The notes beneath the pieces are model-generated. The model was not told the DNA's origin and ran no database searches. It saw only the letters and a program-made list of their open reading frames with translations. Of a stretch of DNA of 64,000 nt, positions 1,400 through 45,464 are shown in pieces; position 1 is the first letter of the stretch; every line of letters starts with the position of its first letter. The DNA comes from Candidatus Krumholzibacteriota bacterium (GTDB lineage Bacteria; Krumholzibacteriota; Krumholzibacteriia; JAJRXK01), in contig CAVXTH010000006.1 in NCBI GenBank assembly GCA_963764625.1, positions 64,001-128,000 on the forward strand. The letters run 5' to 3'. The position numbers and the translations under genes were made by a program.

Positions 1400-3661
1400 T
1401 TGCAGCTCTTGGTTTGGCCGCTCCTGGCCCTCCTGACCCTGTCGCCCCCGGTGCTCAAGGGCGCGGATGAATGGCCGGCCGGCGCTCTCACGCCGCGGGT
1501 GGACCAACCTCCCTTGGTGGGGGAGGGACTCAGCCGCGGCGTCCTCCTGACGCGGATCGACAGCCTCACCACCCTGTATCGCGACGAGAGCCGCATCGAT
1601 CGCGGCCGCCTCGCCTATCGCATCGCCCAGCTCTATCTGTCGACCGGTTTGCTCAAGCACCACCGAATCGCTCTGGAGTATCTCGAATCCGCGATGCAGG
1701 CCGACTCCTCGCTCTTCGGCGCGCAGAGGTTACGCGCCTCCTTGGCACAGTCGATGAAGTACACCGGTCAGGCGCGTCGCTGGTACCTCGACCTGTGTCG
1801 CGCCTTTCCCACCGACGGGCGTGCGTGGCGCCTTTTGGGGGCCTTTCATTTCGAGCAAGCGCGGCGCGTCCTCGATCGCGATGAGTTCGAGACGGCGGCG
1901 CGCGCGTATGCCCGCGCGGTCCGGGTGGACTCGACCGACTGCCGTGCGCGGCTGGGTCTTTCCGCGAGTCTTATCGGCCTCGGCCGGTACGAGAAGCTCC
2001 CGGCCCTCCTCACGCCCGTCGTGGCGAACGAGTCGTTCGCGCAGTCTGCGCTCCTGATGCGCGCTGCCGCGGACCGCGCTCTGGGGGAGGAAGGGAGTTC
2101 CGCGGCCGATTTCGCGCGCGCTCTCCAGAACGCTCCCCCCGAGCTGCGAGAGACCTACCTGTACGGGCGCGAGTTTCTGGACAAGAGCGAGACCATCCAA
2201 CGCTTCGCGGCCCGGCTCGACCCCGAGCTCTTGAAGCAGGGAATGAAGGAAGTCGATCCCCACTGGAGAGACGAGGACGGTCTCGATCTCGGCAAGGCTC
2301 TGGGCGACAGTCTCGTTCTGCGGAGGGCCATCGAGGAATACTGGCGGGCCAACAACCCCTGGCCTTCCCACCTGACGAATCTGAGTCGGCTCGAGTACTG
2401 GCGGCGTCTGGTGGAAGCGGAAGTCCTCTTTGGCCGTCCGGAGGAAGGAGTGCCCGGCTATCGTCGCGAGCCGGGGGTGGCCTGGGTGCGCTGGGGACGT
2501 CCCGAGTCTTCGCTCTACCTACCCCCGGTCCATGGGGCGCGCTTGGATGATCTGGCCACCTTCGCCCTCGACCTGAACATGGCGTTGCCGCCGCCGGACG
2601 TTCCCCTGTGGGTTTGGGGTTATCGGGAGGGACCGTACCGCTTCGCCCTGGTGTTCCAGGACGTGGCGATGAACGGGAATTGGAACGCGCAGACGAGCAC
2701 CGCCAAGCGCCTTCGGCTCGCCAAGAGGGCCGCCCCTCTGGCCATCGAACCCCCCACGGTGCAGGCTCCCAGCTGCCGGATCTACCTCGCGTCCGCCGCT
2801 TTCTACCGGCCCAAGGGAGCCGCGACCCTCGAGAGTTATCTGGAGATCCAGAGCACGAGGCCGGACAGCTCGTTCTCCGCCGGCGAGCGAAACTTTCAGG
2901 TGGAGTACGGCATCTTCGACGCACAGGAGCGCCGCATCGAATATCGAAAAGAGGTTCTGGGAGTGAACGCTCGCCGGGGTGCCCTGCGCGAGAAGCTCGG
3001 CCTGTCCCCGCGGCAGGGGGACGACGATCCCTGGCTCGCGGAATTCGCAGCCGACCTGAAACCGGGACGCTACCGGATCGCGGTGGACGTGAGTGGGGTC
3101 GAAGGCAAAGACCACCAGGCGCGGCAGATCGCCCTGCTCATTCCCGAGCGCCCCACGCGCGAACTTTCGTTGAGCGATCTGCAGCTGGCCTCCACTTTCG
3201 AAGCTCTCCGGGACGGCAGTGAATTACCGGCCTCCATGGTGAAGCACGCGTTCGGTATTCTGCCCGTGCCCAGCGGAGTCTTTCCCCAGGCGGCCAAGAC
3301 GCTCTACGTGTACTACGAAGTCTATTACCTGTGCCGGGATCCCGAACAGAAGACGCATTTCGACGTTAGCTACCGGGTCTACCGCCGCAAGGACAAGGAC
3401 CACACGAGGGTTCTCACCCACCGCGTGGTTCAGGGCCTGAGCCCGGTCGATCCGCTTTCCCTGGGCTATCTCGAGGAGACGACCGCGGTATCCCCTCACG
3501 AGCACGTGGTGAAGGGGGGGATGGTGGACATCAGTGGATTGGAAGCGGGGCGCTACGTGCTGGAGGTGGTGGTGCGCGATCGAGTCTGCAAACAGGTGGC
3601 GCGTTCCTACGCTGCGTTCAGCAAGCAAAAAGGGCCGAACCCAGGAGCCCCAGTGGAATGA
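1400..3661 (+). CDS. secreted TPR-repeat / GWxTD-domain-like protein
   Basis: Signal peptide, TPR-like helices, EYWRRLVEAEVLFG...GYRREPGVAWVRWGRPE (GWxTD-type block), C-terminal LSLSDLQLA...YVYYEVY...LEAGRYVLEVVVRD; GAGGAGG RBS before TTG. Confidence 0.75.
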   Translation: MQLLVWPLLALLTLSPPVLKGADEWPAGALTPRVDQPPLVGEGLSRGVLLTRIDSLTTLYRDESRIDRGRLAYRIAQLYLSTGLLKHHRIALEYLESAMQADSSLFGAQRLRASLAQSMKYTGQARRWYLDLCRAFPTDGRAWRLLGAFHFEQARRVLDRDEFETAARAYARAVRVDSTDCRARLGLSASLIGLGRYEKLPALLTPVVANESFAQSALLMRAAADRALGEEGSSAADFARALQNAPPELRETYLYGREFLDKSETIQRFAARLDPELLKQGMKEVDPHWRDEDGLDLGKALGDSLVLRRAIEEYWRANNPWPSHLTNLSRLEYWRRLVEAEVLFGRPEEGVPGYRREPGVAWVRWGRPESSLYLPPVHGARLDDLATFALDLNMALPPPDVPLWVWGYREGPYRFALVFQDVAMNGNWNAQTSTAKRLRLAKRAAPLAIEPPTVQAPSCRIYLASAAFYRPKGAATLESYLEIQSTRPDSSFSAGERNFQVEYGIFDAQERRIEYRKEVLGVNARRGALREKLGLSPRQGDDDPWLAEFAADLKPGRYRIAVDVSGVEGKDHQARQIALLIPERPTRELSLSDLQLASTFEALRDGSELPASMVKHAFGILPVPSGVFPQAAKTLYVYYEVYYLCRDPEQKTHFDVSYRVYRRKDKDHTRVLTHRVVQGLSPVDPLSLGYLEETTAVSPHEHVVKGGMVDISGLEAGRYVLEVVVRDRVCKQVARSYAAFSKQKGPNPGAPVE

Positions 3662-3819
3662 AGCCCCTCCCCGCGGCACGGTTGGATGCGCGGGGTTCCC
3701 CCTCCCCCCGCACCAACAGGTGCCGCCCTCAGGATATGGGCGACCACCAGGGGCTCCTGGGTTCAGCCCAGGATAACCGGGTCCGATAATTGAACTTACT
3801 GAACCCGGCCTTGCTTGCT
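3620..3819 (-). ncRNA. candidate structured non-coding RNA (~200 nt), family unidentified
   Basis: Nested inverted repeats: 9-bp terminal stem, 13-bp 5' hairpin, 20-bp stem continuing into a long rod; G-U pairs favour the minus strand; U-tract at 3' end; upstream promoter-like site. Confidence 0.55.
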
Positions 3820-3822
3820 TCA

Positions 3823-3851
3823 GGTATACGACGCTCTCGATCGAACGTCAA
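3823..3851 (-). promoter_or_regulatory. sigma70-type promoter for the candidate ncRNA
   Basis: Minus strand TTGACG-N17-TATACC. Confidence 0.45.
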
Positions 3852-3957
3852 GTCTGCTTCTTTGCGAGCGGAGCTTCCCCTTGCCGCGGGCCCAAGCTCG
3901 TCGTAGAAAGGCAAGGGCCATTCGCCGGCATACCCCCCTTTTCGATGCGAGGCAACC

Positions 3958-5193
3958 GTGTCGCAGCGTTCAGTCAAATCGCTTCGCCATCGAGATTTCT
4001 ACCGGGACCTCGAGAAGCTCCTGACCCAGATCGATCACGCCCAGGGCTTCGAAGAGATGCTGAGTGATCTCCTGGAGAAGGTGATCAAGAGCTACGCCGA
4101 GTACATCGGGCTCGAATCGGCCCGCCTGTATCGGGACGAAGGTGACGCCTACGTGGTGCTGCGCTCCTTCGGTGCCAAGGGTACGCAGGTCCTGGGGTTT
4201 AAGGTGGACCGCGGCTACGAGGTCCTGCGCCAGCTCCCGCCGCATCAGACCAAGTTCTTTCCTCCCGACGATCCAGCGGTGAACCAGGAGCTGGAAAAGG
4301 CGCTGGGCGTACGCCAATTCGCGGCGTTCCTGGTGGGGCCGGCGCGTGACTACATCGCGGCCTTCGGTCTGAGCGATGATGCCGACATCCAGGAAGCCAT
4401 GCTGATTCTGAGCACGCTGCGGCACGCCATCGACACCCGCTTGCGCCAGAAAGATCTGGAGGGACAGCTGCTCGAAGCCCACTCGATCCAGACCAGTCTC
4501 TTCCCCGAACGGGCCGGCGAGTTCGAGGGCTACGAGATGACGGGTCGCAGCATTCCCGCCGACCAGGTCGGGGGCGATCTCATCGATTTTCTCCCCATCA
4601 GCGCCACTCTGATGGGCCTCGCGGTGGGGGACGCCTCGGGCCATGGCCTGCCGGCGGCCCTCCAGGCGCGCGACGTGATCACCGGGCTTCGAATGGGAGT
4701 GGAGAAGGACCTGAAGATCACCGCGGTCTGCGAGCGCCTGAACCGGGTGATCCATCGAAGCGGTCTCACCTCGCGCTTCGTGAGTCTTTTCTTCGGCGAA
4801 TTGGAACTCAACGGTAACTTCGTCTACGTCAATGCCGGGCACGATCCAGCTCTTCTCTTGCGCAAGGGGAAAAGAGGACAACTCTTGAAGTCGACGGGGC
4901 TCGTTCTGGGTCCGATGAAAGACATGGAATACCGTCGGGGATTGGTGAACCTGGAACCGGGGGACATGCTCGTCATGTACACCGACGGCATCGTGGAACG
5001 CCAGGGCCCCGACGGCGAGTACGGCCTGCCACGCTTGAGGGAACTCCTCCAACGCGGGTTGGAGGACGATCGGGGAGTAGAGGAGATTCTCGACGGCGTT
5101 TTCGACGACGTCAGTCGCTTCGGGCAGGGTCAGGAATGGGCCGACGACGTCACCATGATGATCGTCCGCCGCAAGATGCCCGCAGGAAAGTAG
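3958..5193 (+). CDS. PP2C/SpoIIE (RsbU-like) serine phosphatase with GAF-like N-terminus
   Basis: VGGD, GDASGHG, NAGH, YTDG and DDVT motifs. Confidence 0.92.
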   Translation: MSQRSVKSLRHRDFYRDLEKLLTQIDHAQGFEEMLSDLLEKVIKSYAEYIGLESARLYRDEGDAYVVLRSFGAKGTQVLGFKVDRGYEVLRQLPPHQTKFFPPDDPAVNQELEKALGVRQFAAFLVGPARDYIAAFGLSDDADIQEAMLILSTLRHAIDTRLRQKDLEGQLLEAHSIQTSLFPERAGEFEGYEMTGRSIPADQVGGDLIDFLPISATLMGLAVGDASGHGLPAALQARDVITGLRMGVEKDLKITAVCERLNRVIHRSGLTSRFVSLFFGELELNGNFVYVNAGHDPALLLRKGKRGQLLKSTGLVLGPMKDMEYRRGLVNLEPGDMLVMYTDGIVERQGPDGEYGLPRLRELLQRGLEDDRGVEEILDGVFDDVSRFGQGQEWADDVTMMIVRRKMPAGK

Positions 5194-5211: not shown

Positions 5212-6036
5212 GTGGGATCCATCGTGGTCGTCATGCCGTTTTGGGGAATGGTCCCCGTGTATGGCCTCGCGTTCCTTTTGTACGCGTGGGCTTTCGCGAA
5301 GAATGACGTCGGCATCTATCGATGGGGCCGCATCGTTCTGGTGCTGGCCGGATTCGCTCACTTGCTCACCCTCTTGAACTTCGGGAGAGTTCGCGGAGAG
5401 TGGCCGCCGGTCAGCGGAGGAGAGAGCATGGTGATTCTCGCCAACTCCATCTCCTTCATCTACATGTACCTGGAGTTTCGTTCGCGCGCGCACGGATTGG
5501 GGATTTTCGCGACCTTCATCATCCTGGCCTTTCAGGTGGTGGGAAGCATCATCGGTCCCGCGCTCGAGGTTCCGGAGATCCTGCGTGGAGTGGGCTTCGG
5601 ACCGCACGTGGCGTTCAACATCACCGCGTTCGCTTCCTTCACCATCGCCGCCGCCACCGCTCTGACCTACGTGCTGCAGTACCGGCAACTGCGCAGCCTG
5701 CGTCCCGGGCCGCTGCTCTCGCGTCTGCCTTCTCTCGAGCAGCTCGATCACATGAGCCACCGTTCCACTCTCTTGGGATGGGTCTTTCTCAGCATGGGTT
5801 TGGTTCTGGGAGCCAAACTGGCCGAGCAGGTGTGGGGGAAGGCGTGGCAGTGGGATCCCAAGCAATGCACGACCTTGCTCACCTGGATGATCTTCGGATT
5901 CGCGCTCTTCTTGCGCCGCTTCCGCGCCTGGCAGGGGGGGAAGATGGCGACGGTGACCATCATCGGCTTTCTGTCCATCATTCTCGCGTTCGTTCTCTTC
6001 AACGGGCTGATGCCGTCAGTGCATCACTTCAGCTAG
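5212..6036 (+). CDS. ccsA: cytochrome c assembly protein (CcsA/HemX family)
   Basis: Multi-TM; LPSLEQLD and WGKAWQWDPK tryptophan-rich motif; directly upstream of hemA. Confidence 0.85.
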   Translation: MGSIVVVMPFWGMVPVYGLAFLLYAWAFAKNDVGIYRWGRIVLVLAGFAHLLTLLNFGRVRGEWPPVSGGESMVILANSISFIYMYLEFRSRAHGLGIFATFIILAFQVVGSIIGPALEVPEILRGVGFGPHVAFNITAFASFTIAAATALTYVLQYRQLRSLRPGPLLSRLPSLEQLDHMSHRSTLLGWVFLSMGLVLGAKLAEQVWGKAWQWDPKQCTTLLTWMIFGFALFLRRFRAWQGGKMATVTIIGFLSIILAFVLFNGLMPSVHHFS

Positions 6037-6044
6037 GAGGAGCC

Positions 6045-7313
6045 TTGCCGATCCTCCTCCTGGGACAGAACCATCGCACCGCTCCGGTCGAGCTTCGCGA
6101 ACAGCTCGCTTTCGACGACGAGAAAGTGCGTTCGCTGGCGACCCATCTGAAGGAGGACGAGGGGATCCGGGAAGCGGTCGTGGTGTCCACCTGCAACCGG
6201 ATGGAGATCTACGCGGTGGGAGACGATTCCGAGCGCGGCTTCGCCCGACTCGGCGAACTCTTGCAGCAGGTGCATGGAATACCTCTCGATCGGATCGATG
6301 GCTCCCTCTACCGCGCGACGGATGACGCCGCGGTGCGCCATCTCTTTCGGGTGGCGAGCGGGCTCGACAGCATGGTGTTGGGTGAAGGACAGATCCTCTC
6401 CCAGGTGAAGGCGGGGTACGCGGGTTCGCGAGACCTGGGGCTGAGCCGGGAGATCATGCACCGCACTTTCAATCAGGCCACCGCGTGCGGCAAGAAAGTG
6501 CGCACCGAAACCCGCATCGGAGAAGGCGCGGTCTCCGTCGCGTTTGCCGCGGTCGAACTGGCGAAGAAGATCTTTCAGGACCTCACCAAGGAAAAGGTCT
6601 TGCTGATCGGAGCCGGAGCCACCGGCCGCAAAGTGGCTCACCACATGAAGGTCTTCGGGGTGGAAGACGTGCTGGTGACCAACCGTACTCTCGAAAGAGG
6701 ACGGGCTCTCGCGGACGACCTGGGAGCTACTCTCGTTCCCTGGGAAAGTTTCGGCGCGTACCTGAGTGAGGTGGCCATCGTGGTGACCGCCGCGTCGGTG
6801 CAGAGGCCTCTCTTCACCCTGGAAACCGCGCAGCGGGCCCTGGAGGGACGCGGACGCCGTCCCCTGTTTCTCATCGATCTGGGGGTTCCCCGGAACATCG
6901 ACCCATCCATCAGCAAGAAGGCCGGGATCTTCCTTTACAATGTCGACGATCTCGAGAGCATCGTGGCGGAGTCGTCGGCGCGACGGCGCGGCGAGGCGGA
7001 GAAGGCCGAGGAGATCGTCGATGAACAGCTCTGCCTCTTCCTCGAATGGCTGGCTTCGCGTTCGATGACCCCGACACTGAAGCAGCTGCGCGAACGTCTG
7101 GAAGAAATTCGCGCCGCAGAAGTGGCCTTGGCGCGCAACCGGGTCGACGAGAAAGCGTTTACGGAGTTGGATCGGGTAAGCCATCGCATCGTGAACAAGA
7201 TTCTCCACACCCCGACCGTTCGCATGAAGGATGAAGTCGCCAAGGGCGAGGGGGCATCCATCATTCAGCACGTGCGGCACCTCTTCGGTCTGGACGACAA
7301 GTTTCTGCACTGA
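6045..7313 (+). CDS. hemA: glutamyl-tRNA reductase
   Basis: NHRTAPVELRE, STCNRMEIY, GLDSMVLGEGQIL, DLGVPRNID; AGGAGG RBS before TTG at 6045. Confidence 0.97.
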   Translation: MPILLLGQNHRTAPVELREQLAFDDEKVRSLATHLKEDEGIREAVVVSTCNRMEIYAVGDDSERGFARLGELLQQVHGIPLDRIDGSLYRATDDAAVRHLFRVASGLDSMVLGEGQILSQVKAGYAGSRDLGLSREIMHRTFNQATACGKKVRTETRIGEGAVSVAFAAVELAKKIFQDLTKEKVLLIGAGATGRKVAHHMKVFGVEDVLVTNRTLERGRALADDLGATLVPWESFGAYLSEVAIVVTAASVQRPLFTLETAQRALEGRGRRPLFLIDLGVPRNIDPSISKKAGIFLYNVDDLESIVAESSARRRGEAEKAEEIVDEQLCLFLEWLASRSMTPTLKQLRERLEEIRAAEVALARNRVDEKAFTELDRVSHRIVNKILHTPTVRMKDEVAKGEGASIIQHVRHLFGLDDKFLH

Positions 7314-45368: not shown

Positions 45369-45464
45369 GGGGATGGATGGGTCCTGGTGGACCCCGGGGA
45401 CTTCAAATCCTGCGGTCGGGCGCCAAGCGTCCGAGGTGGGTTCGATTCCCACACATTCCCGCCA
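45369..45464 (+). tRNA. selC: tRNA-Sec(TCA)
   Basis: CT-TCA-AA loop, 6-bp D stem with 4-nt loop (GGGTCC-TGGT-GGACCC), long variable arm, extended acceptor stem, GCCA end. Confidence 0.92.

Follow-up and report, generated by a model that had tools for sequence, protein, structure and literature searches.

The canonical 6S RNA (RF00013) has a closing stem, a 5' central bulge that is large, and an apical stem capped by a terminal loop, as outlined in an extract of PMC8414754. Here we describe an element of similar proportions in a 64,000-nt stretch of DNA from a Candidatus Krumholzibacteriota bacterium (contig CAVXTH010000006.1 of assembly GCA_963764625.1; we call this whole 64-kb stretch the window). 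The element is very probably a real, stand-alone, single-copy gene, on the minus strand, for a rod-shaped non-coding RNA (ncRNA) of ~195 nt with its own promoter. Like 6S RNA as that extract presents it (PMC8414754), it is a stand-alone gene of the ~180-200-nt class with a housekeeping promoter, closed ends, a long closing helix, a conserved centre, and a long apical helix with a terminal loop. Unlike 6S RNA, it is confined to one genus, has an extra 5' hairpin, and is not matched by the 6S model at E <= 10. Also, where 6S RNA has its large 5' central bulge (PMC8414754, same extract), the 17 x 16-nt centre of the element is predicted to be about half paired. All coordinates below are positions in the window, G000 is the window's own genome, and G001-G004 are its genus mates.

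Other known RNAs resemble the element in part. GadY of E. coli is a cis-antisense RNA that overlaps the 3' end of a convergent gene. Like GadY-type antisense RNAs, the element has its own promoter, is convergent with a coding gene, and overlaps the 3' end of that gene. But the overlap is ~40 of ~195 nt, the conserved parts of the element lie outside of it, and its frame differs by species. The msr-msd RNA of a retron has flanking inverted repeats (a1/a2) with a priming G. The element has a terminal inverted repeat, then a short hairpin and a long hairpin, behind one promoter; but no reverse transcriptase was found in its 96%-complete genome, and the terminal repeat is not conserved in G004 or G001. 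Ms1 of mycobacteria is larger than the element, and we compared these two by description. Ms1 binds the RNA polymerase core; like the element, it is lineage-restricted and highly structured, and it co-exists with 6S RNA or stands in for it (PMC4191392, in the part that describes Ms1). That account also illustrates that RNA polymerase-binding RNAs need not be 6S homologues (PMC4191392).

That the element represents a new RNA family, matching no catalogued one, is well supported. This family combines a conserved promoter, compensatory changes, and stronger conservation than in the adjoining protein-coding genes, and it belongs to a phylum without cultured members. (A literature search found no paper on ncRNAs of Krumholzibacteriota.) Because its birth can be dated to a single genus, it is a rare case for how a highly constrained structured RNA gene arises.

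Promoter, fold and strand of the RNA

An earlier note on this DNA had proposed a new ncRNA that is read from the minus strand and is antisense to the end of a GWxTD-like gene. Our results agree with this proposal. All of the structural elements that the note listed are present at the coordinates it gave, and so is the promoter, TTGACG-N17-TATACC, which is kept in all five genomes of the genus (Table 1).

Table 1. Features of the ncRNA gene and of the protein-coding genes on either side
Feature	Position	Strand	Remarks
-35 box, TTGACG	3846..3851	-	CTTGACGT kept in all five genomes of the genus
-10 box, TATACC	3823..3828	-	17-nt spacer from the -35 box
Predicted transcript, ~195 nt	3620..3817	-	both ends predicted: start placed from the -10 box, end from the U-rich tract
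Terminal stem, 9 bp	3811-3819 with 3620-3628	-	sequence and fold
5' hairpin, 13 bp	3777..3808	-	fold; variable among species
Conserved rod, 144 nt	3631..3774	-	core of the family; region covered by covariance model R1
Closing helix, 5' strand	3744..3769	-	pairs with 3632-3656: 25 bp, with a one-base bulge and tandem U.G/G.U pairs included
Outer part of closing helix, 20 bp with one G.U pair	3750-3769 with 3632-3651	-	sequence and fold
Closing helix, 3' strand	3632..3656	-	plus strand here carries the final 9 sense codons of ORF 1400-3661
Central region, 5' side, UCGCCCAUAUCCUGAGG	3727..3743	-	near-invariant sequence; two weak 4-bp helices predicted
Central region, 3' side, GGGGAGGGGCUUCAUU	3657..3672	-	carries the second GGGGAGGGG motif
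Distal helix, 20 bp	3704-3726 with 3673-3695 (feature 3673..3726)	-	fold and covariation
Invariant purine-rich apical loop, within GGGGGGAGGGGGAA	3696-3703	-	unpaired probability 1.00 in all five predicted ensembles
U-rich tail, UUUUUGCUUGCU	3620..3631	-	directly after the rod; distal part is the 3' strand of the terminal stem
GWxTD-like/TPR gene, open reading frame (ORF) 1400-3661, 753 codons	1400..3661	+	GWxTD domain model TIGR04514 at 23.9 bits, below the 28-bit cut-off
PP2C/SpoIIE phosphatase gene	3958-5193	+	PF07228, E = 7.5e-43
PP2C promoter-like site, TTGCCG-N17-TAGAAA	3881..3909	+	outside the RNA; back-to-back arrangement with the RNA promoter

All five genomes of the genus, and the three metagenome copies as well, have CTTGACGT with TATAnn 16-17 nt further on. 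In G004 and G001, the -10 box has the extended form TGnTATATn at a spacing of 16 nt. Otherwise, the upstream sequence and the 5' domain downstream of the promoter cannot be aligned between the two halves of the genus. The window has a single TTGACR-N17-TAYA (0.03 occurrences were expected), and its tRNA genes have promoters of the same type (TTGACA / TAnAnT). Judging from its sequence, the RNA promoter is of the sigma-70 type. An automated scan of 3300-4300 for promoters and terminators flagged nothing; the scan needs a final T in the -10 box, which is missing here, and the loop of the rod is above the scan's size limit.

The predicted fold is much more stable than expected by chance. The 211-nt stretch on the minus strand has a minimum free energy of -133.0 kcal/mol, versus -90.9 +/- 4.7 in 200 dinucleotide shuffles (z = -9.0), and 0 of the 200 shuffles were as good. 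The plus strand of the element reaches -116.8 kcal/mol (z = -7.2). Within the rod, the inner parts include GCGGCAC/GUGCCGC (3720-3726 with 3673-3679), GUUGG/CCAAC, and an apical GGGG...CCCC helix. The motif GGGGAGGGG is present twice: one copy is in the apical loop, the other is in the central region on its 3' side, and both of these exposed motifs contain GGAGG. By eye, no sequence in the central region fits the consensus forms of K-turn or loop-E type motifs.

The two ends of the RNA are less certain. The transcript would start at ~3816 (+/- 2), which is ~7 nt beyond the -10 box, and would end at ~3620-3627. A start at ~3816 would leave only 6-7 of the 9 pairs of the terminal stem inside the RNA. 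The terminal inverted repeat is 7-9 bp in G000, G002, and G003, and the end pairings are different and weaker in G004 and G001. At the other end of the transcript, the U-rich tail (with a U5 tract at 3627-3631) is the likely site of termination.

The 5' hairpin is kept in G002 and G003, with one-sided changes and one mismatch, and is replaced by longer, unrelated hairpins in G004 and G001. This bears on two other suggestions of the earlier note. It had proposed a kissing loop between this hairpin and the loop of an alternative fold, but the loop complement is not kept in G002 or G003, and G004 and G001 do not have the hairpin. It had also suggested a conformational switch. The alternative hairpin (UCCUGGG/CCCAGGA) does exist in the window, but it is lost in one of the five orthologues (G001), so neither the switch nor the kissing loop is supported. 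In the species that have it, the alternative hairpin may be a co-transcriptional intermediate.

We then consider whether the fold has been selected. The consensus structure from five sequences has 53 pairs in four helices. Ten of the 53 pairs stay paired despite changes on both sides, and all ten are in the closing and distal helices. Standard pairs fill 99.2% of the cells, versus 37-54% if the 3' partners are slid by 1-3 columns, and the observed covariation score was reached by 0 of 500 column shuffles. In the closing helix (helix 1, 25 pairs), two pairs have two-sided changes, five have one-sided changes, and 100% of the cells are paired. In the distal helix (helix 4, 20 pairs), eight pairs have compensatory changes: for example, GCGGCAC/GUGCCGC is replaced by GUAGUGC/GCACUAC and by GCAACGC/GCGUUGC. 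The two short central helices (2 and 3) show no covariation; one of them is invariant and the other is broken in G001. Helix 2 has a predicted pairing probability of 0.99 in four of the five genomes, and helix 3 has a predicted probability of 0.34-0.42.

The same alignment identifies the strand, and here the earlier note was right that G-U pairs favor the minus strand. Read on the minus strand, the structure has 21 G.U or U.G cells and 0 A.C cells. These 21 cells would be mismatches on the plus strand, so the selected molecule is the minus-strand RNA.

Conservation, distribution and origin

The rod is more conserved than the genes that flank it. Its nucleotide identity to G000 is 99.3% in G002, 97.9% in G003, 82.1% in G004, and 79.3% in G001. 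The corresponding values are 81%, 81%, 74%, and 71% for the PP2C gene and 69%, 69%, 52%, and 51% for the 3' 900 nt of the GWxTD-like gene.

Could this conservation reflect protein coding? The stop codon (3659-3661) of the plus-strand ORF 1400-3661 lies within the rod, shortly past the 3' strand of the closing helix, and the ORF enters the rod by 31 nt in G000, G002, and G003. In G004, the same ORF enters the rod by 26 nt and in another frame. In G001, it crosses the whole rod and both promoters in a third frame, with no stop for ~430 nt. Close relatives also differ by one-base indels, one site being the apical loop (G003) and another the margin of the central region. Because of the indels in loops and the three frames of the ORF tail, coding cannot explain the conservation, and the ORF tail is a chance result of where the element lies. 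(No stop of the GWxTD-like ORF itself is conserved: this ORF ends with whichever stop the rod supplies, in a frame that differs by lineage.) Small ORFs within the RNA, with AUU or GUG as the start, are not kept across species, and the 1-nt indels are located in loops.

No catalogued RNA family matches the element. Rfam 15 has no match to it at the gathering score in the whole window, no match at E <= 10 in 3400-4100, and no match at E <= 10 to the element at the orthologous loci L009, L011, and L012. This is consistent with the earlier note's statement that features of signal recognition particle (SRP) RNA, transfer-messenger RNA, and RNase P RNA are lacking. The genome has a small SRP RNA at another locus (77.8 bits). 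It also has its own canonical 6S RNA (RF00013, 55.7 bits) at C6:723021-723200 on the plus strand (locus L013), and the sequence of that RNA looks unrelated to the element. The note's suggestion of a divergent 6S RNA, as a member of that family, is therefore not borne out.

Profile searches of the genome, which is 96% complete, did not find Hfq, Ro/TROVE, reverse transcriptase, or CsrA above its cut-off. In particular, there were 0 matches to Hfq (PF17209), 0 matches to Ro60/TROVE (PF05731), and, across the whole 96.4%-complete genome, 0 matches to reverse transcriptase (PF00078). CsrA (PF02599) had only one match, which was below the threshold (19.8 versus 27 bits) and lay inside a 643-codon frame. 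These results argue against several kinds of RNA. A bacterial Y RNA, whose Ro60 protein is usually encoded close by, is ruled against by the lack of a TROVE protein and of any Y-RNA-type match in Rfam. A sponge for CsrA, of the CsrB/RsmZ type with its many GGA motifs in hairpin loops, is ruled against by the lack of CsrA above the cut-off, and the element has only about two exposed GGA motifs. A base-pairing small RNA (sRNA) that depends on Hfq is ruled against because Hfq was not found.

The gene is single-copy. In the 3.57-Mb genome, blastn found one full copy, and the other matches are fragments of at most 26 nt with E >= 0.12. Covariance model R1 (below) likewise has no second match in this genome. 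Among 40 relatives, the four genus mates have one copy each and the 36 others have none. The earlier note had listed a REPIN or a miniature inverted-repeat transposable element (MITE) as an alternative, and a genome-wide copy number of one argues against both.

We built covariance model R1 from the five 144-nt cores; it scores 145-172 bits in the five genomes and in three metagenome contigs. In a sample of the class, with stricter Infernal filters, R1 matched 5 of 151 genomes: its own genome and all four genus mates, but none of the 146 others. In a sample of the phylum, it matched 4 of 151 genomes, namely its own and the three genus mates that were drawn. Within the family, with laxer filters, 5 of 10 genomes matched, and all five are from the same genus (0 of 5 in the other three genera). 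With the filters off, at the syntenic loci of five genomes from these other three genera, the best match was 15.3 bits (E = 0.1) and was in coding sequence.

Looser searches gave the same picture. A two-anchor motif matched 34 of the 208 genomes available for the phylum, but by eye, the rod lies between the anchors only in the five genomes of the genus. (With the pattern reversed as a control, there were matches in about a dozen genomes.) Among 185,579 species genomes, a motif scan found only the four known genus mates. In metagenomes, the motif scan found five loci, of which three are real and nearly identical to G002 or G003 and two are chance matches inside coding sequence. In viral contigs (IMG/VR), a 15-mer led to 36 loci, none of which match R1 (best E = 0.45), and a 22-mer led to 0. 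Similar DNA was not found by blastn in 72,556 plasmid records or 50,697 phage records. As for environments, DNA metagenomes from salt-marsh, wetland, soil, and sediment contain parts of the stretch. One metatranscriptome run (X20) has two contigs of depth 2, at 3446-3596 (<90% alike) and at 3600-3747 (4 differences). These have no information on strand or ends, and one of them crosses the predicted 3' end, so they decide nothing about expression.

All five genomes of the genus have the element at the same chromosomal place. In four of the five genomes from the family's other genera, the two genes that flank it here stand next to each other, and the spacer of 106-158 nt between them has short hairpins and no match to R1. 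Because these sister genera keep the flanking genes with only the short spacer, the RNA gene is an innovation of this genus. We propose that the spacer between the GWxTD-like and PP2C genes is where it arose, in the ancestor of this one genus of Krumholzibacteriota. In the sister genera (G006-G009, L039-L042), a short G+C-rich hairpin comes right after the stop codon of the GWxTD-like gene (as in G008 and G009). This hairpin is probably the original terminator, in the place where this genus has the RNA gene.

How the RNA might work

Our preferred reading, to which we assign a probability of roughly 0.5, is that the element is a stand-alone, trans-acting, and probably protein-binding regulatory RNA. 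Its own sigma-70-type promoter would drive its transcription from the minus strand. The RNA would probably end at the U-rich tract after the rod and would then act in trans. The covarying helices would be rigid spacers, and the invariant central region and the apical loop would be the surfaces that are read by a partner, most probably a protein. We infer protein binding because the ends are closed by a stem, because the RNA is almost all helical, because the invariance is in unpaired or weakly paired parts, and because Hfq was not found. Helices that act as spacers and loops that make the contacts are typical of RNAs that a protein reads. Modeled in this way, the protein-binding mode of action has a little less than an even chance. 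If one partner had to be named, it would be RNA polymerase holoenzyme, with the RNA as a 6S-type decoy, because the proportions of the element resemble the build of canonical 6S RNA (as described in the extract of PMC8414754). This guess about the partner is itself unlikely to be correct. If the partner were RNA polymerase or the ribosome, this would imply that decoy RNAs evolve repeatedly and independently.

Several observations weigh against our preferred reading. The centre is predicted to be about half paired, instead of the large open bulge of 6S RNA, and the genome already has a canonical 6S RNA. The covariation is from five distinct sequences in one genus, or effectively three lineages, which makes the statistics indicative. 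Also, the orthologues have pyrimidine-rich tails that are weaker than the U-tract of G000. Because G004 and G001 have a weak U-tract, the position of the 3' end is uncertain, and the transcript could run on as an antisense RNA.

Alternatively, the element could be a base-pairing sRNA. Its purine-rich GGAGGGGGAA apical loop and the internal GGGGAGGGG would pair with C/U stretches of mRNAs, or with the CCUCC anti-Shine-Dalgarno sequence of 16S rRNA, and would change translation or stability; the rod would merely present and protect these seeds. The apical loop is suited to this, as it is invariant and is fully unpaired in the five predicted ensembles. Furthermore, both motifs contain GGAGG, the genome's 16S rRNA ends with ...CACCUCCUUUCU, and a neighboring start codon is preceded by GAGG. 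But when we scanned the genome for complements of the three conserved unpaired segments (with up to 3 mismatches), we found scattered C-rich matches, as would be expected in a genome with 62% G+C. No target was outstanding, and the two longer segments had only 4-5 weak matches. By eye, the 5' leaders of the PP2C gene have C/U-rich tracts in the five species, but G-rich seeds pair promiscuously with C/U tracts, so this match is not evidence. The near-total conservation over 144 nt exceeds what a presenter of seeds would need, and Hfq was not found. We give base-pairing a small but real chance.

It is also conceivable, if improbable, that the element acts in cis, as a convergent antisense RNA or as a two-way terminator (or both). 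It would end the GWxTD-like transcript, insulate the PP2C promoter, and act on the 3' end of the GWxTD mRNA via the 40 nt that they share. The arrangement of the genes is in favor of this: in four of the five genomes, the plus-strand ORF reaches 26-31 nt into the rod before it ends (G001 has no stop for ~430 nt), and downstream of the element there is a separate conserved promoter for the PP2C gene. The plus strand folds strongly as well, and the other genera of the family have only short hairpins here, in a 106-158-nt spacer. However, a conserved promoter of its own would be superfluous in a terminator or insulator, as would an invariant centre and apical loop or 98-99% identity across species. 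The balance of 21 G.U to 0 A.C cells shows that the fold was selected on the minus strand and not on the strand of the GWxTD mRNA, and the overlap with the ORF is short and in a frame that differs among species. If the RNA does turn out to be only a local sRNA, it would be an ordinary, though clean, addition to the catalogue.

A more speculative idea, which we consider rather doubtful, is that the element is a decoy RNA that arose de novo in one genus. It might be a non-homologous, 6S-like titrator of RNA polymerase, perhaps with a sigma factor that is tied to the PP2C partner-switching phosphatase. Or it might mimic the Shine-Dalgarno sequence, so that the two exposed GGGGAGGGG motifs would sequester 30S subunits by binding to the CCUCC tail of their 16S rRNA. 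If either form of this idea were true, the element would represent a new class of global regulator, and one so recent that its origin could be traced to an intergenic spacer.

We strongly doubt that the element is a second 6S RNA in the sense of homology, that is, a highly diverged paralogue that truly belongs to the 6S family, like the second 6S RNA of B. subtilis. The resemblance to canonical 6S in size and build (see the extract of PMC8414754) and the housekeeping-type promoter are what suggest this. But RF00013 does not match at E <= 10 in the window or in the three orthologous loci, the genome's real 6S looks unrelated in sequence, the element is in one genus only, and its centre is half paired.

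It is very unlikely that the functional element is on the plus strand, as a structured leader or riboswitch of the PP2C gene or as a site of intercistronic processing in a GWxTD-PP2C operon. In favor of this, the genes on either side are encoded on the plus strand, whose fold has z = -7.2. But the 21 G.U cells become A.C mismatches there, with no compensating G.U on that strand, and the element's promoter points the opposite way. The site TTGCnn-N17-TAGAAA in front of the PP2C gene is kept, with its 17-nt spacing, in all five genomes (it is ~30 nt from the -35 box of the RNA and in the opposite direction). This conserved promoter lies between the element and the PP2C gene, which argues against the element being a PP2C leader, so we reject the riboswitch or leader form of this idea.

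Finally, there is next to no chance that the element is retron msr-msd RNA, a mobile repeat such as a REPIN or MITE, or what is left of a phage or plasmid: the earlier note likened its topology to that of retron RNAs, and the terminal inverted repeat is real in G000, G002, and G003, but the 96%-complete genome has no PF00078, the DNA downstream is the antisense of a 753-codon gene, there is one copy per genome and at the same site in five species, no plasmid, phage, or IMG/VR sequence matches, and the compensatory changes indicate selection on the fold.

Neighboring genes

Further neighbors of the element include a cytochrome c assembly gene, hemA, hemD, a radical-SAM gene, queC, and a kdtA-like (Kdo-transferase-like) gene. 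This neighborhood is a housekeeping, core region of the chromosome. The ORF at 5322-7313 (663 amino acids, plus strand) matches glutamyl-tRNA reductase only from residue 247 onward, and its first third overlaps, in another frame, the ORF of the cytochrome c assembly protein (PF01578) at 5212-6036. Because of where the match begins and because of this overlap, the true start of hemA is probably near 6060. The window also contains a gene for selenocysteine tRNA at 45369-45460 on the plus strand (RF01852, 73.3 bits), so this organism probably makes selenoproteins.

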